A stretch of DNA of 64,000 nucleotides, from sequence record OR699282.2. The stretch is one strand, 5' to 3'. Each line of letters begins with the position of its first letter. The first letter of the stretch is position 1. A program made the position numbers and the translations under genes. Positions 10,161 to 32,733 of this stretch are shown piece by piece. The notes below the pieces were generated by a model. The model had not been told where the DNA came from, did no database searches, and saw only the letters and a list, made by a program, of their open reading frames with translations. Source of the stretch: Escherichia phage BAU.Micro_ELP-22.

Positions 10161-10163
10161 AAT

Positions 10164-11512: not shown

Positions 11513-11548
11513 AGTACTATTGACATAGTTTGATAGTACTGACATAAT
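11513..11548 (+). promoter_or_regulatory. Class-II promoter
   Basis: AGTACT 11513-11518, TTGACA 11520-11525, AGTACT 11535-11540, CATAAT 11543-11548. Confidence 0.65.
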
Positions 11549-11582
11549 AACTTTTATCAACTACACTACTAAGGAATTAAAA

Positions 11583-11762
11583 ATGGCTATCATCGCAAAA
11601 ACTGAAATCATCGGCCTGGATTCTATCATCATGACGTTTGAAGATCAAAAAGGTATGTATGTGGTTTCCTATGGTGATTATGTTCGGGAGTATGAAACGG
11701 TAGACGAAGCCTTTGAAAGTTACATTCGCCAGGTGAATAAAGCATACGACGACTACCGCTAA
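11583..11762 (+). CDS. hypothetical protein (59 aa), not in ORF track
   Basis: ATG 11583 with SD AAGGAA; downstream of class-II promoter. Confidence 0.55.
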   Translation: MAIIAKTEIIGLDSIIMTFEDQKGMYVVSYGDYVREYETVDEAFESYIRQVNKAYDDYR

Positions 11763-11773
11763 AATATATTACC

Positions 11774-11817
11774 AGTACTATTAAATCTATTGACAATGTT
11801 TGATAGTACTGTATAAT
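11774..11817 (+). promoter_or_regulatory. Class-II promoter
   Basis: AGTACT upstream, TTGACA 11790-11795, TATAAT 11812-11817. Confidence 0.6.
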
Positions 11818-11861
11818 AAGTTTTATCAACAGTAGTTAACTTAACCTAAGAGAGAAACAAA

Positions 11862-12005
11862 ATGATCGCACTGGATTCATTCATCGACGCAGTACTGGCA
11901 AAAACTGGCGAGGATCTGACCGCAGAACAATACGCAATGATCGAGCAATGCCAGCAAGACGGTAAATCGGTGAAAGATACTGTTAAGATTATCCGCAAGA
12001 TGTAA
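11862..12005 (+). CDS. hypothetical protein (47 aa), not in ORF track
   Basis: ATG 11862 with SD AAGAGAGA; followed by stem-loop 12012-12037. Confidence 0.5.
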   Translation: MIALDSFIDAVLAKTGEDLTAEQYAMIEQCQQDGKSVKDTVKIIRKM

Positions 12006-12011
12006 GATTAT

Positions 12012-12040
12012 AGCCCACTGGTTAACGCTGGTGGGCTTTA
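12012..12040 (+). terminator. Stem-loop, possible terminator (weak U-run)
   Basis: AGCCCAC..GTGGGCT then TTTAATTC. Confidence 0.45.
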
Positions 12041-12110
12041 ATTCATTACCCTATACAATGCCAGTACTAAACCGTTTATCTCGTTAGAATGCGTTACAGG
12101 ACGTTTAACA

Positions 12111-12308
12111 ATGATTAGCATGAAATCAGTACAAAAACAAATAGAAACATTATCAAAAATTAAACGTAAACAGTACTCCTTAGAATATACAATCAATGGT
12201 AACTATCATCTAATGAAAGAAAATAATTTTATAGTCATTGATGAATCATTGCAAATCATTAGTATAGTACTGAAAGCATTAATCAATGACAGAAAAAAAT
12301 TAAAATAA
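12111..12308 (+). CDS. hypothetical protein (65 aa)
   Basis: ATG 12111; weak SD; AT-rich. Confidence 0.4.
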   Translation: MISMKSVQKQIETLSKIKRKQYSLEYTINGNYHLMKENNFIVIDESLQIISIVLKALINDRKKLK

Positions 12309-12312
12309 ACTA

Positions 12313-12388
12313 TTGACAATATCATCCAGTACTGGCATAATACTTACATCAAGACGAGAACGTCACTAACCCATAGGGTGCACAAATG
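12313..12388 (+). repeat. Repeated intergenic element (B-type sequence, plus orientation)
   Basis: TTGACA 12313-12318, CATAAT 12336-12341, then ACATCAAGACGAGAACGTCACTAACCCATAGGGTGCACA. Confidence 0.55.
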
Positions 12389-12403
12389 TAACTGTATAAT
12401 ATT

Positions 12404-12434
12404 GATCAAAAAATGATCTGATCAATACTTGATC
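12404..12434. promoter_or_regulatory. Cluster of four GATC sites (TGATCA repeats)
   Basis: GATC at 12404, 12415, 12420, 12431 within 31 bp, directly downstream of TATAAT 12395-12400. Confidence 0.4.
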
Positions 12435-12639
12435 AATTTGCGTAAAGTAGTATAATTCTATGCAGTTGGTTAGACGAAAGGTTATGATTAGTAGTGCAAG
12501 TGTATAAAAATTTTCATGGTGTATCGTTCCGCACATATGGGGATGAATATGTGGTATCATGTGGATTGGAAAAAGTAAGAACAAGTAATATTATTGTCGC
12601 ATTACAGTACTATAGTATTTTTATAATGAGGTTAAAATA

Positions 12640-12897
12640 ATGGCTGTAGGATTCGCGAAAGATGGGGCCGAACAAGACGAGATTAACGCAGTGATTCAGG
12701 CTGCCGTTAACCACGCTAGAAAGCAAATTAACGCACAAATAGAATCACTGATACATTGCCTCGACTGCGGCGATATAATCCCTGAGAAACGACGCCAGGC
12801 CGTTAAGGGATGTAAGTACTGCATAACTTGCCAGGAGGATCATGATAGTACTTTTAAACGTCCCCCGCGTAATTGTTGGCATAGATCTATGAGATAA
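12640..12897 (+). CDS. TraR/DksA-family C4 zinc-finger protein (85 aa)
   Basis: C-x2-C...C-x2-C (CLDCGDIIPEKRRQAVKGCKYCITC) C-terminal zinc-finger arrangement typical of TraR/DksA; SD GAGG. Confidence 0.7.
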   Translation: MAVGFAKDGAEQDEINAVIQAAVNHARKQINAQIESLIHCLDCGDIIPEKRRQAVKGCKYCITCQEDHDSTFKRPPRNCWHRSMR

Positions 12898-12904
12898 AAA
12901 GTAA

Positions 12905-12932
12905 TTGACAGTACTGAAAGATAGTGTATAAT
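12905..12932 (+). promoter_or_regulatory. sigma70-like promoter
   Basis: TTGACA 12905-12910, 16-bp spacer with CAGTACTG, TATAAT 12927-12932. Confidence 0.65.
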
Positions 12933-12961
12933 GTTTTATATCTTAACTGAGGATAGTAATC

Positions 12962-13318
12962 ATGGGAATACAACATATCACGCGTACTACTGACAATGGC
13001 GAGATCACTGGCTATCAAGTACAGGGCAAAGTAGCACAATTGCAGTACTGGTTTGTTAAACGTGGAATCATTGCACCGGATCTTGATTATGACCGTGTAG
13101 CGTTTATTGATTCTCTTTATGTTGATCCTGATAGTCGGGGCAATGGTGAAGGTAACGAATTAATGAATGCCTTTATCGATGCCGCCGATGATTCAGATTG
13201 TATCATCTTAGAATGCGATACGGGAGAAGATAACGCCTTTAATCTTAAAGAATGGTACGAAGGTTTCGGATTCGAGGTATTGATAGATAGTGAATATCCT
13301 ATCATGATTTTATCATAG
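12962..13318 (+). CDS. GNAT-family N-acetyltransferase (118 aa)
   Basis: IDSLYVDPDSRGNGEGNELMNAFIDAA matches the GNAT acetyl-CoA binding motif (V-x-P-x-x-R-G-x-G); SD GAGGA. Confidence 0.65.
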   Translation: MGIQHITRTTDNGEITGYQVQGKVAQLQYWFVKRGIIAPDLDYDRVAFIDSLYVDPDSRGNGEGNELMNAFIDAADDSDCIILECDTGEDNAFNLKEWYEGFGFEVLIDSEYPIMILS

Positions 13319-13378
13319 TACTTGCATTTAGTTTTCAGTACTGTTATAGTACTTGCATCAAGGGGAAACATCTTCCCC
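13317..13378 (+). promoter_or_regulatory. PeSL-like promoter cassette
   Basis: AGTACT 13317-13322, TTGCAT 13322-13327, TATAGT 13345-13350, hairpin GGGGAA-ACAT-CTTCCCC 13363-13378. Confidence 0.6.
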
Positions 13379-13396
13379 TACTAAGAGGAAATAAAA

Positions 13397-13585
13397 ATGG
13401 AAAACTTATCAAGTATTTTAGTACAAGATGATTTCGGTAATCCTGGAAGTGCTATCATTGTTCGGGGTAATAAAGCAACATTTGTTATTGCTGGTGGACC
13501 TGTACAGCGTAGCATTAAAAACAATGCCGTTACTATTAATAATGTACGCTATCGCTTAGATAAAGAATTGATTCATAAACTGTAA
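13397..13585 (+). CDS. hypothetical protein (62 aa)
   Basis: ATG 13397, SD AAGAGGAA. Confidence 0.65.
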   Translation: MENLSSILVQDDFGNPGSAIIVRGNKATFVIAGGPVQRSIKNNAVTINNVRYRLDKELIHKL

Positions 13586-13612
13586 TATTAATTTAATAGA
13601 GGATAACAATAA

Positions 13613-13936
13613 ATGTACATTCATACTACTATCACAAAGGAAGTCCGTTGCCAGTTCGAAAGTATTCCGGGCGTATGTTTCATCACTGGTACGTTTTCCC
13701 CTGGTGATCGTGATAATCCAGTACTGTTACAATTACGCCATCCATCATGGGATAAAGCATTTGATCTACCGTTGAATGAATTCGCAACTACTGCTGAAAA
13801 GTACATTAAAAATATTCGCGAGAATGATCGACTATTCATTAATGCTTTTAGTGATTCCGCGTTAAGCGAGATCCACGGCGTATTGGTTGCAATCATGGAA
13901 TCAATGCAGAAAACTAAATTCAAACAAGGTGAATAA
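13613..13936 (+). CDS. hypothetical protein (107 aa)
   Basis: ATG 13613, SD AGAGGA; no own promoter, likely co-transcribed. Confidence 0.65.
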   Translation: MYIHTTITKEVRCQFESIPGVCFITGTFSPGDRDNPVLLQLRHPSWDKAFDLPLNEFATTAEKYIKNIRENDRLFINAFSDSALSEIHGVLVAIMESMQKTKFKQGE

Positions 13937-13942
13937 AAACTA

Positions 13943-14002
13943 TTGACAATGCAATCCAGTACTGTATAATAAGTTACATGAAGGGGAGAAATGATTCTCC
14001 CC
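13943..14002 (+). promoter_or_regulatory. PeSL-like promoter cassette
   Basis: TTGACA 13943-13948, TATAAT 13965-13970, hairpin GGGGAGAAATGATTCTCCCC 13983-14002. Confidence 0.7.
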
Positions 14003-14019
14003 ACTGAGAGGAAAGAAAA

Positions 14020-14232
14020 ATGCAAGGTCAACTAATCGTTCGTAAATGGTCTGATACTAACGAAAAACCGTGGGATGTACAATACATCGGACCGGATGGG
14101 GTATCACGTTATCAGCCTGGCGTAACGCATAGTACTGAGCAATATGCCGCCGCTCACCGCGAACGCCTGTTAGAATCCATGAAACAGGGATACGGTGAAA
14201 AATTCATTCAAGATCATTGGCTGAAAGATTAA
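14020..14232 (+). CDS. hypothetical protein (70 aa)
   Basis: ATG 14020, SD GAGAGGAAAG. Confidence 0.7.
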   Translation: MQGQLIVRKWSDTNEKPWDVQYIGPDGVSRYQPGVTHSTEQYAAAHRERLLESMKQGYGEKFIQDHWLKD

Positions 14233-14249
14233 TAGAAGGAGTACAGCTT

Positions 14250-14342
14250 ATGCAAATGAATCCGATGATTATTGTTTTAGCTGTACTTATGATCATTCAT
14301 GCAATTGTAGAAGTATTAACGCAATCAGGAGTAATAAAATGA
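14250..14342 (+). CDS. tiny hydrophobic peptide (30 aa), candidate membrane peptide
   Basis: ATG 14250 with strong SD AAGGAG at 7 nt; MQMNPMIIVLAVLMIIHAIVEVL hydrophobic; not in ORF track. Confidence 0.5.
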   Translation: MQMNPMIIVLAVLMIIHAIVEVLTQSGVIK

Positions 14343-14512
14343 TTCAAGTAGAATTATCAGTACTGAAAGATCTGTTTTATCGGTTAGGTACTACTGGAGA
14401 GTATCCTAAAAGTGATACCGCAAAACTTTTTGTATCACTCGACTTATGGCAACGCGAACAATTAGTAATGTCCTGGCGTAAAGGTAAAGCAGATAGCGAG
14501 GTGAAAGCATGA
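14339..14512 (+). CDS. hypothetical protein (57 aa)
   Basis: ATG 14339 overlaps upstream stop (ATGA); not in ORF track. Confidence 0.45.
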   Translation: MIQVELSVLKDLFYRLGTTGEYPKSDTAKLFVSLDLWQREQLVMSWRKGKADSEVKA

Positions 14513-14658
14513 AAGAATTCTTATTCGAAGTAGTGTTTCAAGGTGTCGGTAGTAACCAACTGATTCGCTCAAGTGGTTACAATGTTAACCAGGCATGGAA
14601 TAACATTAAACAAATGTACCCGAACGCTATCACCTATCGCAACCCGAAAGAAGTTTAA
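14509..14658 (+). CDS. hypothetical protein (49 aa)
   Basis: ATG 14509 overlaps upstream stop (ATGA); third member of a coupled mini-operon. Confidence 0.45.
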   Translation: MKEFLFEVVFQGVGSNQLIRSSGYNVNQAWNNIKQMYPNAITYRNPKEV

Positions 14659-14686
14659 AAATAATTGAAAAAGGGATTGACTCCGG

Positions 14687-14750
14687 TCAGTCCCTTTGCT
14701 ATTATATACGCATAGAAACAAATCAGCCCACAGGGTGCATAAATGTATCT
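14687..14750 (+). repeat. Repeated intergenic element, type A
   Basis: TTGACTCCGGTCAGTCCCTTTGCTATTATAT then CGCATAGAAACAAATCAGCCCACAGGGTGCATAAATGTATCT. Confidence 0.6.
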
Positions 14751-14790
14751 ATTGTTAGCTGGTGGCTAGTACTGAAAACTATTTTTAAAA

Positions 14791-14823
14791 AGTACTTGCA
14801 TTGTACTTAGAATCAAGTATAAT
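14791..14823 (+). promoter_or_regulatory. PeSL-type promoter driving non-coding element
   Basis: AGTACT 14791-14796, TTGCAT 14796-14801, TATAAT 14818-14823. Confidence 0.65.
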
Positions 14824-14830
14824 GTTTTAC

Positions 14831-14903
14831 ATCAGGACGGGGAACGAAACAAGTAACCCCGTTAAGTAGTCCAGGAGTAAGACATACGAAAACCTCCCCT
14901 GAT
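14831..14903 (+). ncRNA. Candidate small structured RNA (second copy)
   Basis: ATCAGGACGGGGAACGAAACAAGTAACCCCGTTAAGTAGTCCAGGAGTAAGACATACGAAAACCTCCCCTGAT; same layout as 3706-3780. Confidence 0.4.
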
Positions 14904-14911
14904 AAAAAAGA

Positions 14912-14940
14912 TTGACAATAGTTTGAAGTACTGATAAAAT
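14912..14940 (+). promoter_or_regulatory. sigma70-like promoter
   Basis: TTGACA 14912-14917, 17-bp spacer with AGTACT, TAAAAT 14935-14940. Confidence 0.5.
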
Positions 14941-14972
14941 AATCACATCAACTACTGATAAGGAAACATAAA

Positions 14973-15248
14973 ATGCGGATTCTACTGACAGCTAACGAAA
15001 TCGAACAAGTACTGACTACTAACCTGGAAGACTGGAAACGTGAAGCAGATATCCAGGCGGTTCAATGGCTTAACGATAAGTTAACGCCGGATGACTTAAG
15101 CAAGATTGTAGATCCTCAATTCTACGAAGATATTCACGACACCGCGTTAAGCGTCGAGGATGTACTAGATAAGCACTACATTGATACTGATTTGCAGGTT
15201 TACGGTCGTAAAAACTTTATCACTATTCACGATATTTACAATAATTAA
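14973..15248 (+). CDS. hypothetical protein (91 aa)
   Basis: ATG 14973, SD AAGGAA. Confidence 0.7.
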   Translation: MRILLTANEIEQVLTTNLEDWKREADIQAVQWLNDKLTPDDLSKIVDPQFYEDIHDTALSVEDVLDKHYIDTDLQVYGRKNFITIHDIYNN

Positions 15249-15249
15249 G

Positions 15250-15310
15250 TATTGACAAAGTATCTTAGTACTGTATAATAGTTTACATCGAGAGGGGGAA
15301 TGGTTCCCCT
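15250..15310 (+). promoter_or_regulatory. PeSL-like promoter cassette (identical 44-bp promoter, copy 1 of 3)
   Basis: TTGACA 15252-15257, TATAAT 15274-15279, hairpin GGGGGAATGGTTCCCC; same promoter at 15519 and 18096. Confidence 0.7.
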
Positions 15311-15334
15311 CCTAACTAAAAGAGAGAAATAAAA

Positions 15335-15517
15335 ATGGCTAAGTGCACTATCTGTAATAAAGAAATAGTATTAGTTCCAAGTGCCCGTGAACGTGCCGCT
15401 CGGTTCGGTGGCAAAGCGTCAGACTATACAAAAATGTTTACTGCCCATACAGCTTGCCAGGTAGCAAAACGTTCACAAGAAAGCGTAGAATTAATGCGTA
15501 AACTTTCCAAAAAATAA
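15335..15517 (+). CDS. small Cys-containing protein (60 aa)
   Basis: ATG 15335; CTICNKE ... HTACQ possible zinc-ribbon; SD-like AGAGAGA. Confidence 0.65.
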   Translation: MAKCTICNKEIVLVPSARERAARFGGKASDYTKMFTAHTACQVAKRSQESVELMRKLSKK

Positions 15518-15518
15518 G

Positions 15519-15582
15519 TATTGACAAAGTATCTTAGTACTGTATAATAGTTTACATCAAGTGAGGGGAAACGGTTCCCCTC
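15519..15582 (+). promoter_or_regulatory. PeSL-like promoter cassette (copy 2 of 3)
   Basis: TTGACA 15521-15526, TATAAT 15543-15548, hairpin GAGGGGAAACGGTTCCCCTC 15564-15582. Confidence 0.7.
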
Positions 15583-15605
15583 CTAACAAAGAGAGAGAAA
15601 TAAAA

Positions 15606-15929
15606 ATGGCTATGATCCTTACCCAGAAAGTGGAACTGAAAATTGTAACCTCCTTTGACATTAACGTTAATCGGTGGACTGATTCACACGGCAATACTTA
15701 CCACTCTTGCTACGTGTCTGCTTTAATTGGCGACCGCTGGGAAGACCTGGGACACGAAACCTTTACATACGGTTACGGTACACAAGGCGAATACACGGGC
15801 TTGGAGATCATTAAAGAAACCGTTATAGGTTTCAACCCGAAAGAAAAAGTTATTCACCGCATCGAGGAAGAGATCAACAAAGAAATAACAGTTCGCTACC
15901 ACGATGTAAAACGTAAGAAAGACATGTAA
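15606..15929 (+). CDS. hypothetical protein, early paralog family C (107 aa)
   Basis: Track ORF 15561 trimmed to ATG 15606; paralog of 8398..8721. Confidence 0.7.
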   Translation: MAMILTQKVELKIVTSFDINVNRWTDSHGNTYHSCYVSALIGDRWEDLGHETFTYGYGTQGEYTGLEIIKETVIGFNPKEKVIHRIEEEINKEITVRYHDVKRKKDM

Positions 15930-15943
15930 TAGAATCCATTTAA

Positions 15944-15980
15944 AGTACTATTTGACATTGCCCAGATAGTACTTTATAAT
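15944..15980 (+). promoter_or_regulatory. Class-II promoter
   Basis: AGTACT 15944-15949, TTGACA 15952-15957, 17-bp spacer with AGTACT, TATAAT 15975-15980. Confidence 0.65.
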
Positions 15981-16024
15981 AGACTCTAACTTGTAGTACT
16001 AACTTAACTAATAGGATGTATACC

Positions 16025-16420
16025 ATGATTACTAAATTCTACGCTACCCGTGAAGCTGCCCGTATTGTTGCACGCGAGGAAGGCGAAACATTTAAAGACA
16101 TGGGCAAAGATGCACCGAAAGGTCAACGCTGGGCCGTACAGTTCAAAGAGATCTCTGATATTGTGAATTCACCGGAGCCAGTACTAACAGCAGCAGAACT
16201 AAAACGAGCGGATTTACTGGCGTCAATACTTGATGCACAAGATGAGTTTATCGCTGATTCTGATATCAAAGTACAGACAAACCATACCGCATGGACTCAC
16301 GCGGATCACCTGGCAAACCTTAAGCGTCCAAGTGAACTGATTCGCAACCAGAAAGAGATCCGACACGACCGTAAGGGTAATCGTGTAACAGTATACAGTA
16401 AACGCCGCCAGGTTATCTAA
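16025..16420 (+). CDS. hypothetical protein, early paralog family B (131 aa)
   Basis: ATG 16025 (SD AGGA at 8 nt; alternative ATG 16016); paralog of 2837..3103. Confidence 0.65.
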   Translation: MITKFYATREAARIVAREEGETFKDMGKDAPKGQRWAVQFKEISDIVNSPEPVLTAAELKRADLLASILDAQDEFIADSDIKVQTNHTAWTHADHLANLKRPSELIRNQKEIRHDRKGNRVTVYSKRRQVI

Positions 16421-16441
16421 TAACTTGCAGTACTAACAACA

Positions 16442-16468
16442 CGGCGGGATCAGTTCCCGCCTTTTTTA
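16442..16468 (+). terminator. Rho-independent terminator
   Basis: GGCGGGA-TCAG-TTCCCGCC then TTTTTTA. Confidence 0.75.
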
Positions 16469-16481
16469 TAGGACAAACAAA

Positions 16482-16736
16482 ATGATTAAGGTTCAACTAT
16501 ATAAAGATAACATCTTACGGGTACACTATAAAGCACCACAGAGAATCATCACAAAGGCCGTACAGCTTGCTAATGAGTTTATTAATGGTAACCTATTACC
16601 TAGGAAGTTAAGCAACGGGAAACTGCGTGTAATCGACGTGGACACTAACAACAGGATAGTAATCGAGAACACAGGAAAGATAAACCTTTATGAGCATCAA
16701 CAATACAATAAGAAAATAAAACTAATATCACGTTGA
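16482..16736 (+). CDS. hypothetical protein (84 aa)
   Basis: ATG 16482; SD weak. Confidence 0.6.
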   Translation: MIKVQLYKDNILRVHYKAPQRIITKAVQLANEFINGNLLPRKLSNGKLRVIDVDTNNRIVIENTGKINLYEHQQYNKKIKLISR

Positions 16737-16790
16737 CAGTACTCAAATGTTTTAGTACTATATGTACATACCAACACGGGGAGAAACAAA

Positions 16791-17033
16791 ATGATTACTT
16801 TAGAAAAACGTATCAAAGAAACTACATCGCTGGTGGAACTGTTAACAGTACTCAAATGTAAAACTACTCGGTTTAGTACACCGGACTTTATTAATATGGT
16901 TGATGTTAACGGTCGTTATCGTATTGCAGTAGAACAAGGCACGGCAAAAGTATTCAGTACTAAAAACACTAAGGAAGTGATTCACGCGGTTAGTGTGAAA
17001 AAAGTGGTTGCCATTGATAGTAAAGTACTGTAA
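16791..17033 (+). CDS. hypothetical protein (80 aa)
   Basis: ATG 16791, SD GGGGAG. Confidence 0.65.
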   Translation: MITLEKRIKETTSLVELLTVLKCKTTRFSTPDFINMVDVNGRYRIAVEQGTAKVFSTKNTKEVIHAVSVKKVVAIDSKVL

Positions 17034-17064
17034 GATAGTTTCATTAACTCAAGGAGAACATGCA

Positions 17065-17649
17065 ATGCGTAATTATACTAAATTCATCCGTACCCTGTCA
17101 GAAATGGAAACCAACAAAGAGATCCTTTCAGCTTGTCGGTTAGCTGGCCTGGAGATCATCGGTGCTGGTTCTTCCCGTATAGTTTTCGCTTTAAATGATC
17201 GGTTAGTGATTAAGGTCGCGAATTGTGATGCGGGTGTAGAACAAAATGAAACTGAATGTAAGGTATGGAATTTTTTAGACTATGACCGCCCTCAGTTGAA
17301 ACAGTACTTTGCAAAGGTGCATATGCATTTATGCGATCCTGATAATATGTTTATCGTTATGGATCGGTTGAGTACTGCAAGCAAAGGCAGTGTGAAGCAC
17401 GTAAACGCGTGCAATGAATTAAAGTACAATATTAAACGTAATGCAATCGAACGCCAGCACCGCTTTGCTGATGCACTACAACACGTTGATGATACATTAT
17501 CAACACTAACGATAAGAGATATCAGAAAACAGAATATCGGCCAGGATCGTAATGGACTTATTAAAGTACTTGATTACGGTTTAACCAGCAATATCTGGAA
17601 TCAGTACTATAAAAAGCGTGATGTGGCAGCAAGTAAGGTAACACGATAA
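17065..17649 (+). CDS. minimal Ser/Thr protein kinase-like protein (194 aa)
   Basis: Track ORF 17008 trimmed to ATG 17065 (SD AAGGAG, 8 nt); Gly-rich loop GAGSSRIVF, Lys in VIKVAN, catalytic-loop-like RDIRKQNIG, DFG-like LDYG. Confidence 0.65.
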   Translation: MRNYTKFIRTLSEMETNKEILSACRLAGLEIIGAGSSRIVFALNDRLVIKVANCDAGVEQNETECKVWNFLDYDRPQLKQYFAKVHMHLCDPDNMFIVMDRLSTASKGSVKHVNACNELKYNIKRNAIERQHRFADALQHVDDTLSTLTIRDIRKQNIGQDRNGLIKVLDYGLTSNIWNQYYKKRDVAASKVTR

Positions 17650-17667
17650 AAAAGATTAAAAAAGGGA

Positions 17668-17746
17668 TTGACTCCGGTCAGTCCCTTTGCTATTATATAT
17701 CCATTGAGAGATAACTCACTGACCCATAGGGTGCGGAAGTGTATCT
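17668..17746 (+). repeat. Repeated intergenic element, type A
   Basis: TTGACTCCGGTCAGTCCCTTTGCTATTATAT then CATTGAGAGATAACTCACTGACCCATAGGGTGCGGAAGTGTATCT. Confidence 0.6.
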
Positions 17747-17785
17747 ATTATATAAGTATTCAGTACTGAAAACTATTTGATAAAA

Positions 17786-17850
17786 AGTACTTGCATTGTA
17801 CTTAGAATCAAGTATAATGTTTTATATCGAGAGGGGGAAATGGTTCTCCC
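17786..17850 (+). promoter_or_regulatory. PeSL-like promoter cassette
   Basis: AGTACT 17786-17791, TTGCAT 17791-17796, TATAAT 17813-17818, hairpin GGGGGAAATGGTTCTCCC 17833-17850. Confidence 0.7.
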
Positions 17851-17872
17851 TGGTATATTAAGGAATAAAATC

Positions 17873-18094
17873 ATGACTACAATGACTTGCATTTACGCTT
17901 CCAATCTTCTGAATGATGCGGCCTTTAATGTTGATTCAGAATATCAATGTTATCGGGATGAAAATAAAAAAGTTTTTGTAGTTGATAATAATGGTTTCCA
18001 TATTGAATTGCAATCCGGTTTCACTGGTGTTGATGGTAAATCAGTATGGGGCGTACAGGATGATAAAGGCACATATCATTTTAAACGTAATTAA
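17873..18094 (+). CDS. hypothetical protein (73 aa)
   Basis: Track ORF 17777 trimmed to ATG 17873; SD AAGGAA. Confidence 0.7.
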   Translation: MTTMTCIYASNLLNDAAFNVDSEYQCYRDENKKVFVVDNNGFHIELQSGFTGVDGKSVWGVQDDKGTYHFKRN

Positions 18095-18095
18095 G

Positions 18096-18156
18096 TATTG
18101 ACAAAGTATCTTAGTACTGTATAATAGTTTACATCAAGGGGAGAATAGTTCTCCCC
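18096..18156 (+). promoter_or_regulatory. PeSL-like promoter cassette (copy 3 of identical promoter)
   Basis: TTGACA 18098-18103, TATAAT 18120-18125, hairpin GGGGAGAATAGTTCTCCCC 18138-18156. Confidence 0.7.
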
Positions 18157-18180
18157 ACACCAATAAAAGGAAACATAATT

Positions 18181-18453
18181 ATGTCTAGCTACTCCGCTAC
18201 TATGATCATTAAAGATATGAACGGTAATCCTACTTCTGCTGGTGGATCATTTGGAAACATTAATTTAGATGGTCGGTTATCCATGCAATCAGCAATCGAT
18301 GCAGCGAAAGAAGTTTTTAAGAATGAATGTACTGTTAGTAAGCTGGATTATATGGGATTTGCTATCGAAAAAACTAATCGTTTTGTGAACTACAAAAAAC
18401 CATTGATGATTGATACTAACCTGAAAGCTAACGAAGTGGAGTACTTATTATGA
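18181..18453 (+). CDS. hypothetical protein (90 aa)
   Basis: ATG 18181, SD AAAGGAAA. Confidence 0.7.
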   Translation: MSSYSATMIIKDMNGNPTSAGGSFGNINLDGRLSMQSAIDAAKEVFKNECTVSKLDYMGFAIEKTNRFVNYKKPLMIDTNLKANEVEYLL

Positions 18454-18641
18454 CAGTTGAAGAAGTTAAAAAAGTACTGGCAGTACTACGCTATCATAAT
18501 CATTGCAAGGTGAAGAATGATCCTGATTATCTCGATTCATCCCTGGAAGAGGATACACTACAAGCAATAAGCCATATGCAAACATTAGCAAAGCGTATGA
18601 CTGAAAAGAACATGCCGGACTATATCGGAAATAAAATTTAA
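18450..18641 (+). CDS. hypothetical protein (63 aa)
   Basis: ATG 18450 overlaps upstream stop (ATGA). Confidence 0.6.
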   Translation: MTVEEVKKVLAVLRYHNHCKVKNDPDYLDSSLEEDTLQAISHMQTLAKRMTEKNMPDYIGNKI

Positions 18642-18643
18642 AA

Positions 18644-18710
18644 AGTACTTGCATTGTAGTTAGATTAACGTATAATGTTTTATATCGAGAGGGGGAAATG
18701 GTTTCCCCTC
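18644..18710 (+). promoter_or_regulatory. PeSL-like promoter cassette
   Basis: AGTACT 18644-18649, TTGCAT 18649-18654, TATAAT 18671-18676, hairpin GAGGGGGAAATGGTTTCCCCTC 18687-18710. Confidence 0.7.
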
Positions 18711-18728
18711 AAGTCCAGGAGATACACC

Positions 18729-18992
18729 ATGAACACTATCGAAATCACTATCAATGCACACGTATACGACAACGTAGTACTGCAAACTACTATGACCGCT
18801 AATGATACCAGTACTTTGCGGAATACTGTTATTAGTGCCGTATGTGCCGCTATCGGTGATGTCGCCCTGGAAAATGCAAAACACGTAAACGATGGTTTCA
18901 CTATGTGCAAACGTGATAACGCAAAACATATCATCGTAGAAGGTTACGGCGGTGTAGAATATAATGTTTATATGAAAAAAGTACTTGCATAA
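18729..18992 (+). CDS. hypothetical protein (87 aa)
   Basis: Track ORF 18675 trimmed to ATG 18729 (SD AGGAGA); C-terminal codons overlap -35 of next PeSL. Confidence 0.7.
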   Translation: MNTIEITINAHVYDNVVLQTTMTANDTSTLRNTVISAVCAAIGDVALENAKHVNDGFTMCKRDNAKHIIVEGYGGVEYNVYMKKVLA

Positions 18993-19041
18993 TAACTAAA
19001 ACAAAGTATAATGTTTTGCATAGGGGGAGATATCCTCCCCC
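18980..19041 (+). promoter_or_regulatory. PeSL-like promoter cassette
   Basis: AGTACT 18980-18985, TTGCAT 18985-18990, TATAAT 19007-19012, hairpin GGGGGAGATATCCTCCCCC 19023-19041. Confidence 0.7.
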
Positions 19042-19059
19042 ACTAAAAGGAGTAATAAA

Positions 19060-19284
19060 ATGGCTAACTTTGATGAACTGATGCGGGAAGTAGCTACCCT
19101 GGCAGAAGAAAAGAAATCATTCGATTCTATCTATAGCACCGCTCACCGTGATTCAGTACTGGCATGTAACCAGGATCAAAAAGATGAACTAATCGCCACC
19201 TATCATGAAGCATGGAAGTACTACCGACAATGGGAGAAAGAAGAAAGAGAGTCTACCATTGACGGCCTCAATAATCTAATCTAA
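19060..19284 (+). CDS. hypothetical protein (74 aa)
   Basis: ATG 19060, SD AAGGAG. Confidence 0.7.
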   Translation: MANFDELMREVATLAEEKKSFDSIYSTAHRDSVLACNQDQKDELIATYHEAWKYYRQWEKEERESTIDGLNNLI

Positions 19285-19296
19285 AAGTTTTATTTC

Positions 19297-19333
19297 AGTA
19301 CTATTGACATAGCTTGATAGTACTGATGTAATA
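19297..19333 (+). promoter_or_regulatory. Class-II promoter
   Basis: AGTACT 19297-19302, TTGACA 19304-19309, AGTACT in spacer, -10-like GTAATA. Confidence 0.55.
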
Positions 19334-19360
19334 ACTTTACTAACTACAAGGGGAAACATA

Positions 19361-19618
19361 ATGGAACAGTTCACACAATATCGGGTAAATCCTCAAGCTA
19401 TGGCCTACGTAGAAGACCATAAAACATTACCAGTACTAACACCAATTAAAGGCCATATCTATCGTGCAATGTCATGGAATACCGCCCAGGATAGATATAC
19501 TACCGCTGGCGTGGGTATGTATTGCGGGAATGGTGAATGGTTTGATCCAAATAATCCGGTAGCCATTGACAGTACTGAAAAAATGAAATGGGCCGACTAC
19601 ATCGAAGATATTTCATAA
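19361..19618 (+). CDS. hypothetical protein (85 aa)
   Basis: ATG 19361, SD GGGGAAA. Confidence 0.65.
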   Translation: MEQFTQYRVNPQAMAYVEDHKTLPVLTPIKGHIYRAMSWNTAQDRYTTAGVGMYCGNGEWFDPNNPVAIDSTEKMKWADYIEDIS

Positions 19619-19625
19619 AAACTAT

Positions 19626-19686
19626 TTGACAGTACTAACCAGTAATGTATAATGTTTTACATAGAGCGGGGGAATAGTTCTCCCGC
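19626..19686 (+). promoter_or_regulatory. PeSL-like promoter cassette
   Basis: TTGACA 19626-19631, TATAAT 19648-19653, hairpin GCGGGGGAATAGTTCTCCCGC 19666-19686. Confidence 0.7.
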
Positions 19687-19708
19687 CAATAGTTTGGAGT
19701 AAAACATT

Positions 19709-19909
19709 ATGTCTATCGCTATCGCCCTGGTTGAAGTACTGAAAGAAGCTAAAGCCAACCAGATCGACGTAAAGATCCAGGAACTACAAAACGGCGTAAT
19801 CGGCTGTACTTGTACCGCTGGTGGAGCGGCAGACTATCGAGAACACGAATCACTCGAATCACTGGTTCGGTATCTTACCATGATCGTTGATGATTGGAGA
19901 ATCATCTAA
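19709..19909 (+). CDS. hypothetical protein (66 aa)
   Basis: ATG 19709, SD GGAG. Confidence 0.65.
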   Translation: MSIAIALVEVLKEAKANQIDVKIQELQNGVIGCTCTAGGAADYREHESLESLVRYLTMIVDDWRII

Positions 19910-19930
19910 CAAAAAAGAATAAAAAAGGGA

Positions 19931-20004
19931 TTGACTCCGGTCAGTCCCTTTGCTATTATATACGCATAGACAAAAACTAGCCCACAGGGTGCATAGGTGT
20001 ATCC
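19931..20004 (+). repeat. Repeated intergenic element, type A
   Basis: TTGACTCCGGTCAGTCCCTTTGCTATTATAT then CGCATAGACAAAAACTAGCCCACAGGGTGCATAGGTGTATCC. Confidence 0.6.
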
Positions 20005-20070
20005 AAAATATATAGTTAATAACGGTGAGTAACTATCTGCTGGTGGAGTGAAAACTATTAATAAAAAAGT

Positions 20071-20100
20071 ATTGACAAAGTATATCAGTACTGCGATAAT
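20071..20100 (+). promoter_or_regulatory. sigma70-like promoter
   Basis: TTGACA 20071-20076, spacer with CAGTACTG, GATAAT 20095-20100. Confidence 0.55.
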
Positions 20101-20153
20101 GTATCTCGTAGGGCGGCAATGGTGCAACGGCCCACAAAGTTAGGAGATTCAAA

Positions 20154-20486
20154 ATGAGTACTTCAATCGCTATCGTTAAAGCTTTCATCCGTACCAATGT
20201 TTCATCTGTATTCATCGACGGACTGGATCGTGAAGTAGAATACTCAATCATTATCGCACAGACTGCAAACGGTGCTCGGTATATCCTCAATGATAGTGAA
20301 GCAAATCACTACTACTTCACTAAAGCTACTGGCTTTAAACGCATCGATGCCGATGTAGTATACGCTAAGATGAATAAGCTGGTAGACAAGATTAACGCTA
20401 AAGGCACTATTGATTTACAGTACTGGACCGAAACCGATCCAGAATATGGATCTCACCGCTACCTGAATCCAGGTATCAAAATGTAA
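20154..20486 (+). CDS. hypothetical protein (110 aa)
   Basis: ATG 20154, SD AGGAGA. Confidence 0.7.
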   Translation: MSTSIAIVKAFIRTNVSSVFIDGLDREVEYSIIIAQTANGARYILNDSEANHYYFTKATGFKRIDADVVYAKMNKLVDKINAKGTIDLQYWTETDPEYGSHRYLNPGIKM

Positions 20487-20488
20487 AA

Positions 20489-20554
20489 AGTACTTGCATA
20501 GTACTTAGATTCATGTATAATGTTTTACATAGAGAGGGGGAAATGGTTCTCCCT
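20489..20554 (+). promoter_or_regulatory. PeSL-like promoter cassette
   Basis: AGTACT 20489-20494, TTGCAT 20494-20499, TATAAT 20516-20521, hairpin GAGGGGGAAATGGTTCTCCCTC 20533-20554. Confidence 0.7.
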
Positions 20555-20575
20555 CCTAAATTAAGGAGTTTTATC

Positions 20576-20977
20576 ATGACCTTCTCAATCACTTCCTTCG
20601 CTGACGTTTTAGTACTGGCTCGGACTTTTGGTAAAGATGCACTGGAGTACGCTGTAAGTAATGGCACTATCCAACCGGAACAGTGCCGCATCATTGGAAA
20701 CTGCAAACGTTGGGCGGTATCCAATACTATTGCACTGGAAAACTTCCACGATGGCAACAATGAATATTCTGTTGATGTAGTATTCGAAGCCGTTGATCTC
20801 GGCGGTATCTATAATACTAACCTGAATGATGTGCGTATCGTTCGCACTGGGTTCGGTGCTTATGATGTATCTATTCGTGAAGCTATGAACACCGGATACA
20901 TTAGCAAGGACTTACTTGCTCACATCATGCAGCTGTGTACGGAACGTAACGAAGCACGCACTATCTTAGGACTGTAA
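20576..20977 (+). CDS. hypothetical protein (133 aa)
   Basis: Track ORF 20513 trimmed to ATG 20576; SD AAGGAG. Confidence 0.7.
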   Translation: MTFSITSFADVLVLARTFGKDALEYAVSNGTIQPEQCRIIGNCKRWAVSNTIALENFHDGNNEYSVDVVFEAVDLGGIYNTNLNDVRIVRTGFGAYDVSIREAMNTGYISKDLLAHIMQLCTERNEARTILGL

Positions 20978-28508: not shown

Positions 28509-28816
28509 AATTTAATATAGCAAAAACATCGAGTATATGTATTTTTGGTTATGCAGAAGAGTTAGGTGATATTGACATTCTTTTGTACAAAAAGGATGGT
28601 GTTATGCATTTCAAGTACCAGGATGAAGAGGCAGACAATTATCTTTTACCTAATTTAGTACAAATGCAGGAAGAGGAATTATTCCAGTACAGCTTAGTAT
28701 ACGACATTGATATTTGCACGATGCCAGTACTAATTAGTATTCAAAAAGTGATGCTCGATATGTATGATAAGCTAATACAAGGTATGTCAGGGAGGATCAT
28801 TGAAATTGACATATAA
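28505..28816 (+). CDS. F2 paralog (103 aa)
   Basis: Track ORF 28499 (GTG) trimmed to ATG 28505; EEELFQYSLVYD core. Confidence 0.6.
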   Translation: MKFNIAKTSSICIFGYAEELGDIDILLYKKDGVMHFKYQDEEADNYLLPNLVQMQEEELFQYSLVYDIDICTMPVLISIQKVMLDMYDKLIQGMSGRIIEIDI

Positions 28817-28838
28817 GAATATACCTAATGCATATGAA

Positions 28839-29012
28839 ATGAAGTACAGGGAGTTTATTAAAAATGTACACACCGATCCTTTTAATATCAAAATATCAGA
28901 GTTTGATGTATTATTTTATCTAGGGTCAATAGCACAGGATCAATGCGTTGATAAGCTCATATGGTCCTTGAAAATGGAGATACAATGCAGACCCAAATAT
29001 ATAAAAAGGTAG
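28839..29012 (+). CDS. F1-type paralog embedded in F2 array (57 aa)
   Basis: Track ORF 28800 (TTG) trimmed to ATG 28839; FYLGSIAQDQCV core. Confidence 0.55.
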   Translation: MKYREFIKNVHTDPFNIKISEFDVLFYLGSIAQDQCVDKLIWSLKMEIQCRPKYIKR

Positions 29013-29248
29013 ATTCTTTATTGTACGCTTCAAAGTACAGGGATTTTTGTTTACGAGGGGGAGAGGAAGATTTCTCTCTGAGATTATCTGAATTTAATAT
29101 GTTATTTTATCTTGGTACAAAAGATCAAGAAGATACAGTACAGAAATTTATCAAGCACCTTGAACAAAAAATTAATATGCAAATTTTGATGCTTAAGTTA
29201 CAGAATGAGATAAATGAATATGAATCCAGAAATAGTTCAGGATCTTAA
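28961..29248 (+). CDS. F1-type paralog embedded in F2 array (95 aa; alt ATG 28985)
   Basis: FYLGTKDQEDTV core. Confidence 0.55.
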   Translation: MVLENGDTMQTQIYKKVDSLLYASKYRDFCLRGGEEDFSLRLSEFNMLFYLGTKDQEDTVQKFIKHLEQKINMQILMLKLQNEINEYESRNSSGS

Positions 29249-29606
29249 AAAAGTAATATTTCTTTTGAATACCAGAAGTGAATTGTATACAGAGTTAAAA
29301 GAGATTAATGCATTTTATCAGAATTTTGTAATCCAAGAGATCAGTGATTTAATTACAGATGCATTATTTGAATTCTCGGAGAAATACAAAGGTTCAGAGT
29401 TCAGTGTTAAGAATGTTATTCGTCCAAGTGCAAGGAAAATTATATTATCACATTTTACATTTGACAATAAAGATTTATTCAGTCATAATCCAAGTACAGC
29501 TTTATATTTTATTCCTGATTCAGACAAAAATCATCCTATTCATTACGGATGGATTTTGTCATATATAGTACAAGGAAAGGAGTATCCTATTAAATGGAAA
29601 GATTAG
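29214..29606 (+). CDS. hypothetical protein (130 aa)
   Basis: Long ORF in array, no family core recognised. Confidence 0.5.
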   Translation: MNMNPEIVQDLKKVIFLLNTRSELYTELKEINAFYQNFVIQEISDLITDALFEFSEKYKGSEFSVKNVIRPSARKIILSHFTFDNKDLFSHNPSTALYFIPDSDKNHPIHYGWILSYIVQGKEYPIKWKD

Positions 29607-29754
29607 GGCGATTAGATTATTACACAATTAATACAAATTATTTGTTGCGTAATATAAAATCCGATTACAAAATATGGATAAAGAACAGAGATAGCATGTG
29701 TTATGAATTTTATTTAGATTATGCTATCAAACGATTTTTAAGAGAAGAACATTA

Positions 29755-29958
29755 ATGCAAAAGATTAATACGATAACATTAAATGCATTACAGGATTCAT
29801 TATTAGATAGTATTAAGATGTATTACAATATACATTTGAAGGGTGGTATTGATAATTACGATTATTATTTGAGTTTAATTACATTTGAGCACCTTTCAGT
29901 ACAGGACAGGATTTTACATCCTACAAATCCTAGGTATCCATCGATAGGTAAATTATGA
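29755..29958 (+). CDS. hypothetical protein (67 aa)
   Basis: ATG 29755; ATGA overlap with next gene. Confidence 0.5.
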   Translation: MQKINTITLNALQDSLLDSIKMYYNIHLKGGIDNYDYYLSLITFEHLSVQDRILHPTNPRYPSIGKL

Positions 29959-30503
29959 ATGAGATAGAGTTATTAGCACACAAGATAAGTACAATAATGC
30001 TTATCCTCAATAACAACCATCCTATATCGCATATAGATGGAATCCTGAGTCAGAGAACAGGTGGTAGTTTATATTTGTCCATAAACGCAGATATCGCAAG
30101 GAAATACATTGATATTGATGTTGAAATCGAATATGATACAACGGGGATTGTTGATGTAGGTGCATTAATCAGTTCAAATCCAGTATCAGCATCCCCATTG
30201 ACCAAAGGTGTTAGTACAGGATTCGAAGGGTATTTGTGGTACAATACCAATGATGATTATTTTATATATCAGCATTCCAATACAAATTATGATGAAGACA
30301 AATTTCAGTTCATAGACCCTTATGATGAAGCTGGCGTATTCCAACAATCATTAATCACAAAACCGCATGAGATGATGTATCTAATGTTATTCAGTACAAT
30401 GCATTTGAATTCATTAATTAAAGGTTTAAAATTTTATATTCAATTAAATTTAGTCCATGTAGTTTATGATTTATTAATGCAAGGATATAGTTATGAAGTA
30501 TAA
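29955..30503 (+). CDS. F2 paralog (182 aa), member of duplicated unit
   Basis: MNEIELLAHKIST N-terminus and LMQGYSYEV C-terminus shared with 30575..31081; VFQQSLI core. Confidence 0.65.
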   Translation: MNEIELLAHKISTIMLILNNNHPISHIDGILSQRTGGSLYLSINADIARKYIDIDVEIEYDTTGIVDVGALISSNPVSASPLTKGVSTGFEGYLWYNTNDDYFIYQHSNTNYDEDKFQFIDPYDEAGVFQQSLITKPHEMMYLMLFSTMHLNSLIKGLKFYIQLNLVHVVYDLLMQGYSYEV

Positions 30504-30574
30504 AATGTTGTATACCCCAAGATATGATTTATGTTGAATTAGAAGATGATGCATCCATCAATAGGTAATAATAT
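30493..30574 (+). pseudogene. Truncated, frameshifted remnant of a copy of gene 31071..31382
   Basis: ATGAAGTATAAAATGTTGTATACCCCAAGATATGATTTATGTTGAATTAGAAGATGATG matches start of 31071 gene but has 1-nt insertion and early stop. Confidence 0.6.
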
Positions 30575-31081
30575 ATGAATGAGATAGAATTATTAGCACA
30601 CAAGATTAGTACAGTAATGCTTATGCTCAAGAATAATCATTCTATGCATAAGTACATTTATATAGGTGATTTACGCATAGAAGATAGATATGATAAATTA
30701 TCGTTTTTGTTTAAAGATGAAAGTAATGCAAAAGTTTGTTTTGCAGCATTTGCCCAAGGCAATCCAGAACAAGCATCTCCTGTTATATACGAAAATAGTG
30801 AAGGGTATTTGTGGGTCAACACAAACGATTATTTCTTTTATGATTTGAAACAAAATGATGAAGTAGAAGCACGAATTGATTTAATTGATATTAGTTCAGA
30901 TTGTAGTTCTGAATTATTTCAGAAATCGTTATTATACAGTCCTCGTCAAATACATTATCTAAAGTTATTCAGTTCATTGTACGCGAATCCTTTAATTAAG
31001 GGTTTTAAATTTTATATCAAAATTCCGTACCTTTCAAACGTTTATGATATTTTGATGCAAGGATATAGTTATGAAGTATAA
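30575..31081 (+). CDS. F2 paralog (168 aa), duplicated unit
   Basis: Paralog of 29955..30503; ELFQKSLLY core. Confidence 0.65.
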   Translation: MNEIELLAHKISTVMLMLKNNHSMHKYIYIGDLRIEDRYDKLSFLFKDESNAKVCFAAFAQGNPEQASPVIYENSEGYLWVNTNDYFFYDLKQNDEVEARIDLIDISSDCSSELFQKSLLYSPRQIHYLKLFSSLYANPLIKGFKFYIKIPYLSNVYDILMQGYSYEV

Positions 31082-31382
31082 AATGATGTATACCCCAGAT
31101 ATGATTTATGTTGAATTAGAAGATGATGACGATGGGTGGAATTTGATTTATTCAAGAAGTTCAGGTTGGTACATGGCACATTTAAATGATTCGATAGTTA
31201 CAGATTATTTTGTAGATTTCAATACATTATCCGATGAAGAATTGTTCCAACAGCAATTAGTGATTGACACGGGTGGTTATGATGTCTTATTATTAAAAAA
31301 GATACAAAAAGCTGTTATTGATTTTAAGCCCATGATATGGCAAAGGAAATATTATGACCTCGAAGTACCATACCAGCAATGA
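31071..31382 (+). CDS. F2 paralog (103 aa)
   Basis: DEELFQQQLVID core. Confidence 0.6.
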   Translation: MKYKMMYTPDMIYVELEDDDDGWNLIYSRSSGWYMAHLNDSIVTDYFVDFNTLSDEELFQQQLVIDTGGYDVLLLKKIQKAVIDFKPMIWQRKYYDLEVPYQQ

Positions 31383-31920
31383 AATTCAGTACACCTACGC
31401 TAATGCCATCCTTATGGGACAAAAGTTAGCTTGTATTGTTGCAGCCTTATATAATGCCCAGAAATATCACAAGCGTCATTTCCACAAATGTATTGGTATT
31501 ATTCCATCGAAGTACAATACATATATTGCGTGCACGAGTCATTTTGATAAACGATTCAATACACCTGATACCCCAAATTCCCGTAGTGTTATTGGTCTTT
31601 TGGATTTCGCCCCTGGTGCTGTTATTGGAAAGAATGATTTAGAGTACGCATGGTATAATAAAAATGCCCCGTTAGTAATGGTAAAATATGATACAGAAAC
31701 GAACAAAACAATAGAGTACAATACATATAAATCAGAGGAAGAATTTTTCCAAGGTTCATTGCTTGTACCAGTGCGTTTGTTGTTTTATAATGTCCTTATT
31801 AGTACAGTACACAATAGTCCATTACACAAGAATCACAAAATTAATTTCAATTTTTGTGCTTATGCGATTGATGGTGTGTATGAGTGTTTAATGGAGGTAT
31901 TGAGTTATGAAGCTGAATAA
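31354..31920 (+). CDS. F2 paralog (188 aa; start uncertain)
   Basis: EEEFFQGSLL core. Confidence 0.6.
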   Translation: MTSKYHTSNEIQYTYANAILMGQKLACIVAALYNAQKYHKRHFHKCIGIIPSKYNTYIACTSHFDKRFNTPDTPNSRSVIGLLDFAPGAVIGKNDLEYAWYNKNAPLVMVKYDTETNKTIEYNTYKSEEEFFQGSLLVPVRLLFYNVLISTVHNSPLHKNHKINFNFCAYAIDGVYECLMEVLSYEAE

Positions 31921-32248
31921 TACATTTGATATTAATAAGTTAAGAGAATGGTTTTATAGTATTGAAATTGAAGCCATCCCGTATCATAGATATGAACAAT
32001 ATAATTTAACCAGTATTGATATCAGTGAGTTGTACGCGTATTATCAAAGTGCATTAGAGATGCATAAGTTATTTTTGAGTACAGATTTTGTTCTAAATTA
32101 CAATTTTGAGGAATTTAAAAATTATAATTTAGTACAGAAATATGTAGTAGCAAAGTACATGTACAATCAAGGAATCAAAGGTTGCATCGAATTCAATACC
32201 GTTCTTGTTTTAGTTGAGGTAATTTTATGCACCGCATGTCTGATTTAG
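31907..32248 (+). CDS. F2-like paralog, divergent (113 aa)
   Basis: ELYAYYQSAL variant core. Confidence 0.5.
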   Translation: MKLNNTFDINKLREWFYSIEIEAIPYHRYEQYNLTSIDISELYAYYQSALEMHKLFLSTDFVLNYNFEEFKNYNLVQKYVVAKYMYNQGIKGCIEFNTVLVLVEVILCTACLI

Positions 32249-32733
32249 AGTTCAGTTTAGATGCAGCATTTAAATTTGTTCACAAAATAGAAACAATATA
32301 CAGTACATTATGTGCAATAACATCAGTATCAAAAGAGCTTGATGTTGGTGAAAGGTATCAGGTGTGGAATAATTCATTTTTTAATAAAGAACATTCTTCG
32401 ACGGCATTTTATATTTTAGCATTTAATCCCAGCAATTGTTACCCAGAGAAGCATGAACGTTATCCGAATGACGACATGTGGTTTGAGTACAAAGAAGATT
32501 CTGATATGTCGTCAATTGTAGTTCCTGATGATTTTAATGCACAAGATTTAACAGAAGAGTGGTGGTTCCAGCAGAATTTAGTACATGATGATATTGATTT
32601 ATTTTTCTATATTGCATTTAAAATGCTTTATCACAACAATATAGTTAAAGAAAGTGTATCGTTTTCATGTCTATATATTGATGATTTGTACAATGAAATT
32701 CAAATAAACATGCCCAGAACGCCTGTATCGTAA
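32227..32733 (+). CDS. F2 paralog (168 aa)
   Basis: EEWWFQQNLVHD core. Confidence 0.6.
   Translation: MHRMSDLEFSLDAAFKFVHKIETIYSTLCAITSVSKELDVGERYQVWNNSFFNKEHSSTAFYILAFNPSNCYPEKHERYPNDDMWFEYKEDSDMSSIVVPDDFNAQDLTEEWWFQQNLVHDDIDLFFYIAFKMLYHNNIVKESVSFSCLYIDDLYNEIQINMPRTPVS

Follow-up and report, generated by a model that had tools for sequence, protein, structure and literature searches.

Tailed phages reportedly become mosaic through illegitimate recombination at gene boundaries and subsequent homologous exchange, as set out in the Hendrix/Juhala model for lambdoid phages. In the hyperplastic regions of T4-type phages, modular shuffling proceeds via repeated PeSL cassettes, which combine a promoter with a stem-loop terminator (Arbiol et al. 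2010, PMC2839356; Comeau et al. 2014, PMC4122927). For jumbo phages, tandem gene duplication has been named as a route of genome expansion (Hua et al., as cited in the phAPEC6 paper, PMC7247149), and sets of paralogs were noted in phage CBB (PMC5259590). The literature on Sharanji, fEgEco12, phAPEC6 and CBB holds nothing on the protein family or the locus described below; for phAPEC6 it offers a general remark on tandem duplication only, and for CBB a general note on paralogous ORFs only.

Here we analyze a stretch of 64,000 nucleotides from Escherichia phage BAU.Micro_ELP-22 (OR699282.2), hereafter the window, which belongs to the genus Asteriusvirus (PBECO4/121Q-type jumbo coliphages). The analysis centers on a small fragment, or scar, that lies between two related genes, A and B, just upstream of a third gene, C (Table 1). 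The 3.5 kb around A, the fragment and B match 33 phage records, all of them from jumbo phages of Escherichia or Salmonella within the genus Asteriusvirus (PBECO4, 121Q, slurp01 and others), with JP4 as the best match at 98.7%. The genes in this neighborhood are all encoded on the + strand, small and mutually overlapping. Gene C overlaps the stop codon of B by 11 nt, and C', the truncated copy of C within the scar, overlaps the stop codon of A likewise.

The locus resembles the T4-type hyperplastic regions in three respects: both are plastic regions crowded with small, non-essential genes whose functions are unknown; very close relatives differ there by insertions, deletions and replacements that end in short repeated sequences; and a cassette of one gene can be excised when neighboring repeats recombine. 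Unlike PeSLs, however, the repeats at this locus are formed by the coding ends of genes (the final ~40 nt of A or B together with the overlapping start of C), and there is no promoter or terminator signal at the junction. With tandem duplication in jumbo phages the locus shares a long same-strand paralog array and a tandem junction between two of its members, but these members appear to have been already diverged (46% amino acid identity) when they were joined, so that we would speak of the stacking and exchange of old versions and not of the birth of a copy. As in the Hendrix/Juhala model, a novel joint at a gene boundary, with 1–3 nt of microhomology, seems to have spread via flanking conserved sequence; unlike the lambdoid case, the phage is a lytic jumbo myovirus, the joint lies inside a paralog array, and in place of a clean boundary a visible gene stub was left behind. 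The locus is a clear but ordinary case of gene-cassette shuffling in a phage paralog array, and it reveals no new mechanism and no protein function. Its value is that of a well-resolved natural example of how a jumbo-phage paralog array changes, probably by one illegitimate joint, after which the cassette spread and was lost by way of short conserved gene ends, with all three haplotypes (A only, B only, and A plus B) still circulating.

Table 1 Features of the A-fragment-B locus (window coordinates unless another record is named)
Feature	Coordinates	Strand	Remarks
Upstream gene 'up', 67 aa	29755..29958	+	3' end is the source of the right-hand part of the scar
5' repeat, A start region	29949..30025	+	87% identical to the B start region (30569-30645)
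Gene A, 182 aa, PHROG 19795	29955..30503	+	Resident version of the pre-C slot in most Asteriusvirus genomes
Left direct repeat (A end + C')	30462..30551	+	Pairs with 31040-31128 at 93%/97% identity
C', truncated gene C copy (first 58 nt)	30493..30551	+	1-nt insertion, one substitution, stop
Right half of the scar	30552..30574	+	30552-30568 derived from the 'up' 3' end; 30569-30574 (TAATAT), native pre-B spacer
Gene B, 168 aa, PHROG 19795	30575..31081	+	Deeply diverged A version, not carried by all relatives
Right direct repeat (B end + C start)	31040..31128	+	Pairs with 30462-30551
Gene C, 103 aa, PHROG 33987	31071..31382	+	Intact; 5' end copied into the scar
Gene X	A4 2158-2508; contig L020 3519-3878; contig L023 3626-3994; Turkey3 180-509

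Anatomy of the fragment

The scar (30493-30574; 82 nt) is a composite of three pieces: 59 nt of C', 17 nt that we call up', and a 6-nt spacer native to B. An earlier note on this DNA had described the whole segment as a copy of the first ~80 nt of gene C carrying a 1-nt insertion and an early stop. The segment does prove homologous to the start of C, and both the insertion and the stop are present, but the part derived from C is only 59 nt long. This part (30493-30551) copies the first 58 nt of C with 57 of 58 positions matching, the sole substitution being a T at 30508 where gene C has an A. The extra base lies within a C4A2 run (30515-20), and the resulting frame reads 14 codons, MKYKMLYTPRYDLC*, before it meets TGA at 30535-37. 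With 58 of the 312 nt of C kept, a +1 frameshift and a stop after 14 codons, C' has the features of a truncated pseudogene. Its last 32 nt (30520-30551) are identical to 31097-31128, whereas no such match arose in 100 dinucleotide-preserving shuffles, and among the intergenic gaps between 21.5 and 56 kb only the one at 30504-30574 has a match elsewhere in the window, at the start of gene C.

The 17 nt that follow C' (30552-30568; CATCCATCAATAGGTAA) show no similarity to gene C at 31129-31151 and match the 3' end of 'up' (29935-29951; TATCCATCGATAGGTAA). The allele that UE-S1 carries at this end of 'up' (TATCCATCAATAGGTAA) equals up' at 17 of 17 positions, and the corresponding alleles of 121Q, TH47 and WPEC3 are very different from it. 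The start of one gene is here fused head to tail to the end of a gene that lies upstream. The TAATAT that completes the scar also precedes B in phages that have B only.

The fragment is not the same in all phages that carry it. The WPEC3 type retains 6 extra nt of C (..GACGATG|TATCC..), and in WPEC3 and vB_Ec-M-J the fragment matches the start of an A4-type C at 52 of 52 nt and not the C of the same genome. In the PBECO4-like clade, which includes the window, the fragment has both the +1 frameshift and a 6-nt deletion, and the frameshift is a derived character at the level of this clade. Separately, the BF17 record contains a 12-nt tandem duplication (ATGAAGTATAAA x2) at about 1700-1723, exactly where A stops and the fragment starts, which is private to BF17.

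Divergence of A and B and their haplotypes among relatives

Genes A and B both start with MNEIELLAHKIST and end with LMQGYSYEV, as the earlier note had recognized, but its description of them as close paralogs does not hold. Only 45.8% of residues are identical (76/166; 60% nucleotide identity), dS is about 1.0, and at third codon positions in the middle of the genes 42.6% match (55/129 silent positions) against 30.8% expected from composition. Likeness between the two is confined to the first ~77 nt (87%) and to the last ~40 nt plus the fragment (93-97%), and does not extend along the whole length as it would in a fresh tandem duplication. The repeat period is 578-620 nt, and its unit is a single gene with stubs of both neighbors, not the two-gene unit that had been proposed. 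As C' matches C at 57 of 58 positions and A matches B at 55 of 129 silent positions (Fisher p = 3e-15), the fragment is far younger than the split between A and B.

In a neighbor-joining tree all B alleles form one clade, sister to all A alleles, and A and B are sister clades relative to the paralog D (31354-31920). The A alleles (A1, A2 and A3) are down to 54% identical in amino acids, and B has an allelic series of its own in genomes without A (99, 93 and 79% amino acid identity). On this basis A1, A3 and B look like three deep versions of the gene that fills the slot before C. Gene A is intact in 18 of 18 relatives examined, and the A and B ORFs that occur are intact in every genome except the CMSTMSU record (MH494197, UNVERIFIED_ORG), in which frameshifts break both A and B, probably as a matter of sequence quality and not of biology. 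Among B alleles dN/dS is high and ranges from 0.35 to 1.1 (0.35 against the SRR23924980 contig, 0.86 against A4 and ~1.1 against WPEC3), which suggests relaxed or diversifying selection; in WPEC3 most changes in B relative to the window lie in its recombinant 3' end.

We compared the layout of the locus across 23 phage records and 7 assembly contigs, the latter metagenomic or genomic. The order up-A-fragment-B-C is present in JP4, BF17, slurp01, ECO103 4-12-1, TH47, WPEC3, vB_Ec-M-J, CMSTMSU, Turkey3, EC.P1 and fEgEco12 and, by BLAST coverage, in WPEC5 and EC22.5-2. The order up-A-C, with neither fragment nor B, is found in PBECO4, 121Q, E9.1, phAPEC6, G17, CRJP21, UB, SD-15_S21, UE-S1, Ecwhy_1 and ph0011. 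A third order, up-X-B-C, is without A and occurs in phage A4 and seven further contigs or genomes. Counted by BLAST coverage over the 33 records, B is present in 14, of which 13 have the scar-plus-B layout and one, A4, has B only. A 28-mer spanning the junction was absent from IMG/VR and from the JGI metagenomes, and the haplotype sample therefore stands at about 40 genomes and contigs.

Gene X encodes an unrelated protein of 109-122 aa whose N-terminus is hydrophobic and signal-like and whose AQAV repeats vary in number. Haplotypes with B only encode a B protein that is 93% or 79-81% identical to that of the window, and they carry the same ATAGGTAATAATATATG before B as the scar phages. In Turkey3, gene X sits between 'up' and A3, and forms another presence/absence cassette at the same boundary.

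Wherever B follows the scar, its nucleotide identity is 98-100%. The right-hand junction ...TCCATCAATAGGTAATAATATATG-B, checked base by base, is identical in at least 11 other deposited genomes from two sublineages, and phages bearing it come from China, Poland, Turkey, the USA, Thailand, India, the Czech Republic and Finland. The comparison with related phages that the earlier note had called for shows that the junction is private neither to the window nor to its immediate relatives and that B alleles exist without A. What the note read as the footprint of a recent duplication is indeed tandem and of the duplication type, but with a junction shared by at least 11 phages and silent sites saturated between A and B it is not recent.

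WPEC3 also has two tandem C-like genes (2352-2663 and 2669-3001) after B, which in Ecwhy_1 follow A. Tandem C-like genes are seen in the relative records L016, L018, L028 (Turkey3), L029 and L030 as well. With this arrangement, WPEC3-like phages provide another instance of stacked versions, in the next slot downstream.

Movement and origin of the cassette

The fragment and B of WPEC3 and vB_Ec-M-J are 94-99% identical to those of the window, against 59-79% for A and 72-76% for C. The last ~40 nt of B in these two phages are A-type sequence (GATTTATTAATG), which appears to mark a crossover at that point. Ecwhy_1 matches WPEC3 at 99-100% identity across 1.6 kb of left flank and at 98-99% across 0.4 kb of right flank, but lacks a stretch of ~0.58 kb, consisting of the fragment and B, that is bounded by a direct repeat of ~50 nt. 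PBECO4, E9.1, G17 and others are exactly 578 nt shorter than the window here. This length is the spacing of the 90-nt repeats at 30462-30551 and 31040-31128, and recombination between the two would delete exactly 578 nt. Each sublineage contains genomes with and without B whose flanks are almost identical, with the indel bounded by 50-90-nt direct repeats at gene ends; a one-gene cassette is, in other words, present or absent between near-identical relatives, with end points in direct repeats. When the presence of B is set against a 6-nt indel in A, all four combinations exist, and recombination or repeated events must therefore have occurred. Against its relatives the array is a patchwork in which blocks of 100% identity stand beside blocks of 60-80%, and allele mosaicism runs throughout it.

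The shared junction, the mosaic identities, the A-type end of B, the clean indels, the four combinations and the patchwork of the array together point to repeated gain and loss of the cassette via homologous recombination in the conserved gene ends. In genomes without B the repeat sequences fit gain and loss equally, as both routes give the same product. Asteriusvirus-type phages encode a recombinase of their own (PMC11895373). The earlier note had taken the duplication as direct evidence that the array is still expanding; the array is dynamic, but the basis for saying so is the polymorphism for B and the allele mosaicism, not a new duplication at this place.

We infer the order of events, the mechanism of recombination and, for each polymorphism, its direction from these arrangements, and consider the following account probable: a single old, microhomology-mediated unequal crossover stacked two gene versions that had already diverged, and the cassette has since been gained and lost by homologous recombination. 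The unequal, illegitimate event would have fused gene C at position ~64 with 'up' at position -17, and its probable site is a shared ATG (GACGATG|GG in C and CTATG|TATCC in the UE-S1-type 'up'). This possible microhomology is visible from the UE-S1 allele of 'up', gene C and the longer WPEC3-type fragment. The crossover would have placed A and B, two versions of PHROG 19795, in tandem in the slot before C, and by then they would have been old, deeply diverged alternatives for that slot. It could have taken place between two co-infecting phages with different versions, or a true duplicate could have been overwritten soon afterwards by the B version from another phage. The account predicts a parent of layout up-B-C, in which an 'up' ending ...TATCCATCAATAGGTAATAATATATGA is directly followed by B. 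Such a layout, with B directly after 'up', was not found among the genomes compared; all haplotypes with B only have the unrelated gene X between the two.

The joining event would be older than the divergence of the known Asteriusvirus isolates that carry B. From then on the fragment plus B would have behaved as a presence/absence element that moved between lineages and could be deleted precisely, with the last ~40 nt of A or B and the first ~50-60 nt of C or C' as probable sites of exchange. The fragment would have decayed further in the PBECO4-like clade, and in the WPEC3-like clade it would have kept an open frame of 26 codons. Because the C' part tracks a different C allele in each of the two fragment types, one or more additional exchanges in or next to the fragment must be assumed.

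An ancient duplication in situ, which we consider unlikely, would have made A, B and the fragment together. The gene ends and the fragment would then have been kept similar by gene conversion or selection, and the haplotypes with A only or B only would derive from later deletions or replacements. Such a history would accommodate the position of A and B as sister clades relative to paralog D and the conserved ends of all alleles, conversion would produce C' parts that track different C alleles, and the direct repeats would ease precise loss. The 17 nt of up', however, have no homology on their left flank to drive conversion, and yet they are exactly those of one modern 'up' allele, in a gene whose 3' ends vary widely from lineage to lineage. 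The fragment and B also hardly vary (94-100% identity) among lineages with only 59-79% identity in their flanks, which fits recent spread and not ancient co-residence, and the more diverse B alleles sit in haplotypes with B only.

The fragment might also be kept as a short leader frame, on whose ATG ribosomes leaving A would restart. This idea is compatible with any origin, and we find it a little more doubtful still. An intact frame of 26 codons, MKYKMLYTKDMIYVELE(D/V)NDDVSINR*, is present in WPEC3, vB_Ec-M-J, Turkey3, EC.P1, fEgEco12 and CMSTMSU; its TAA is followed by TAATAT-ATG, so that it ends 6 nt before the start codon of B, and the ATG of the fragment overlaps the stop of A exactly as C overlaps the stop of B. 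Consistent with restarting, no promoter-like or terminator-like site was seen at the junction. More widely, 28.5-32.5 kb holds no terminator-like site and no enrichment of promoter-like sites (23 against 28.7 expected). The frame is broken, however, in the window and in the five PBECO4-like relatives examined, where it stops 37 nt before B while B is still intact. Folding of the gap as RNA detected no structure (z-score 0.78), and the substitutions in the frame are not obviously synonymous (D/V).

A fresh tandem duplication of A plus C in this genome, with the fragment as its new footprint, is highly improbable. The junction has the form expected of such an event and C' is nearly identical to C (57/58), but a junction that recurs unchanged in 11 or more other genomes, spread over several continents and two sublineages, together with the divergence of A from B (46% of residues, dS ~1), refutes it; the fragment moreover shows lineage-specific decay, and B alleles occur without A. 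The case is a caution that a near-perfect gene stub beside a pair of paralogs need not mean a recent duplication when the array recombines with those of its relatives. An assembly artefact, in which the 77-90-nt repeats of the region were mis-joined from short reads, can be set aside, as more than 10 assemblies, made independently by different laboratories and on different platforms, show this structure, and B is a full, uninterrupted ORF that has alleles of its own elsewhere.

Beyond the proposed stacking of A and B by an old unequal crossover, it is possible, though we put it forward tentatively, that conserved coding ends act as built-in recombination linkers through which deeply diverged versions of fast-evolving accessory genes are swapped, stacked and dropped, making up a cassette system that diversifies the array. 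The linkers may consist of the first ~20 codons of a gene and of its last ~14 codons plus the overlapping start of the next. If this were true, A-fragment-B would be the first caught example of 'allele stacking'.

The surrounding paralog array

Whole-profile matches assign A (E = 1.6e-92), B (E = 1.7e-32) and D (E = 1.4e-85) to PHROG 19795. Gene C belongs to PHROG 33987, and PHROGs gave only families of unknown function. Pfam has no family for A, B, C or four of their neighbors, and BFVD returns only matches to uncharacterized proteins of related jumbo phages (RaK2, GAP32, CBB, fHe-Yen9-03/04 and pEa_SNUABM_47). A profile search of 1.84 billion representatives gave 31 hits only, and the family is therefore narrow. 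A common motif, EE-x-(F/Y/L)FQ-x-S-L-(I/V), is carried by at least 15 ORFs of 103-194 aa on the + strand between 27489 and 54661, and an alignment of 23 paralogs shows its F115 and Q116 to be invariant. This large paralog array is restricted to RaK2-like jumbo phages. Any role in host interaction or counter-defence would be a guess.

When 28800-32700 is compared with 16 relative records (L001-L016), identity jumps abruptly between ~100% and 60-85%. The interval 28800-29100 is 100% identical in PBECO4, JP4 and BF17 and 61-81% in E9.1, G17 and phAPEC6; 29300-29900 is 68-87% identical in TH47, and 32100-32400 is 84-89% identical in slurp01.

Elsewhere in the window, from 1600 to 20600, about 40 intergenic gaps of 50-460 nt lie between small + strand genes and share repeated sequence families, which may be regulatory cassettes by analogy with T4-type PeSLs. 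In one family 2423-2465 equals 3108-3148 and is similar to 3664-3711, 1665-1709 and 10762-10810; in another, 11221-11267 equals 18112-18158 and is similar to 9843-9874 and 15535-15561; in a third, 14668-14741, 19922-19995 and 17659-17699 resemble one another.
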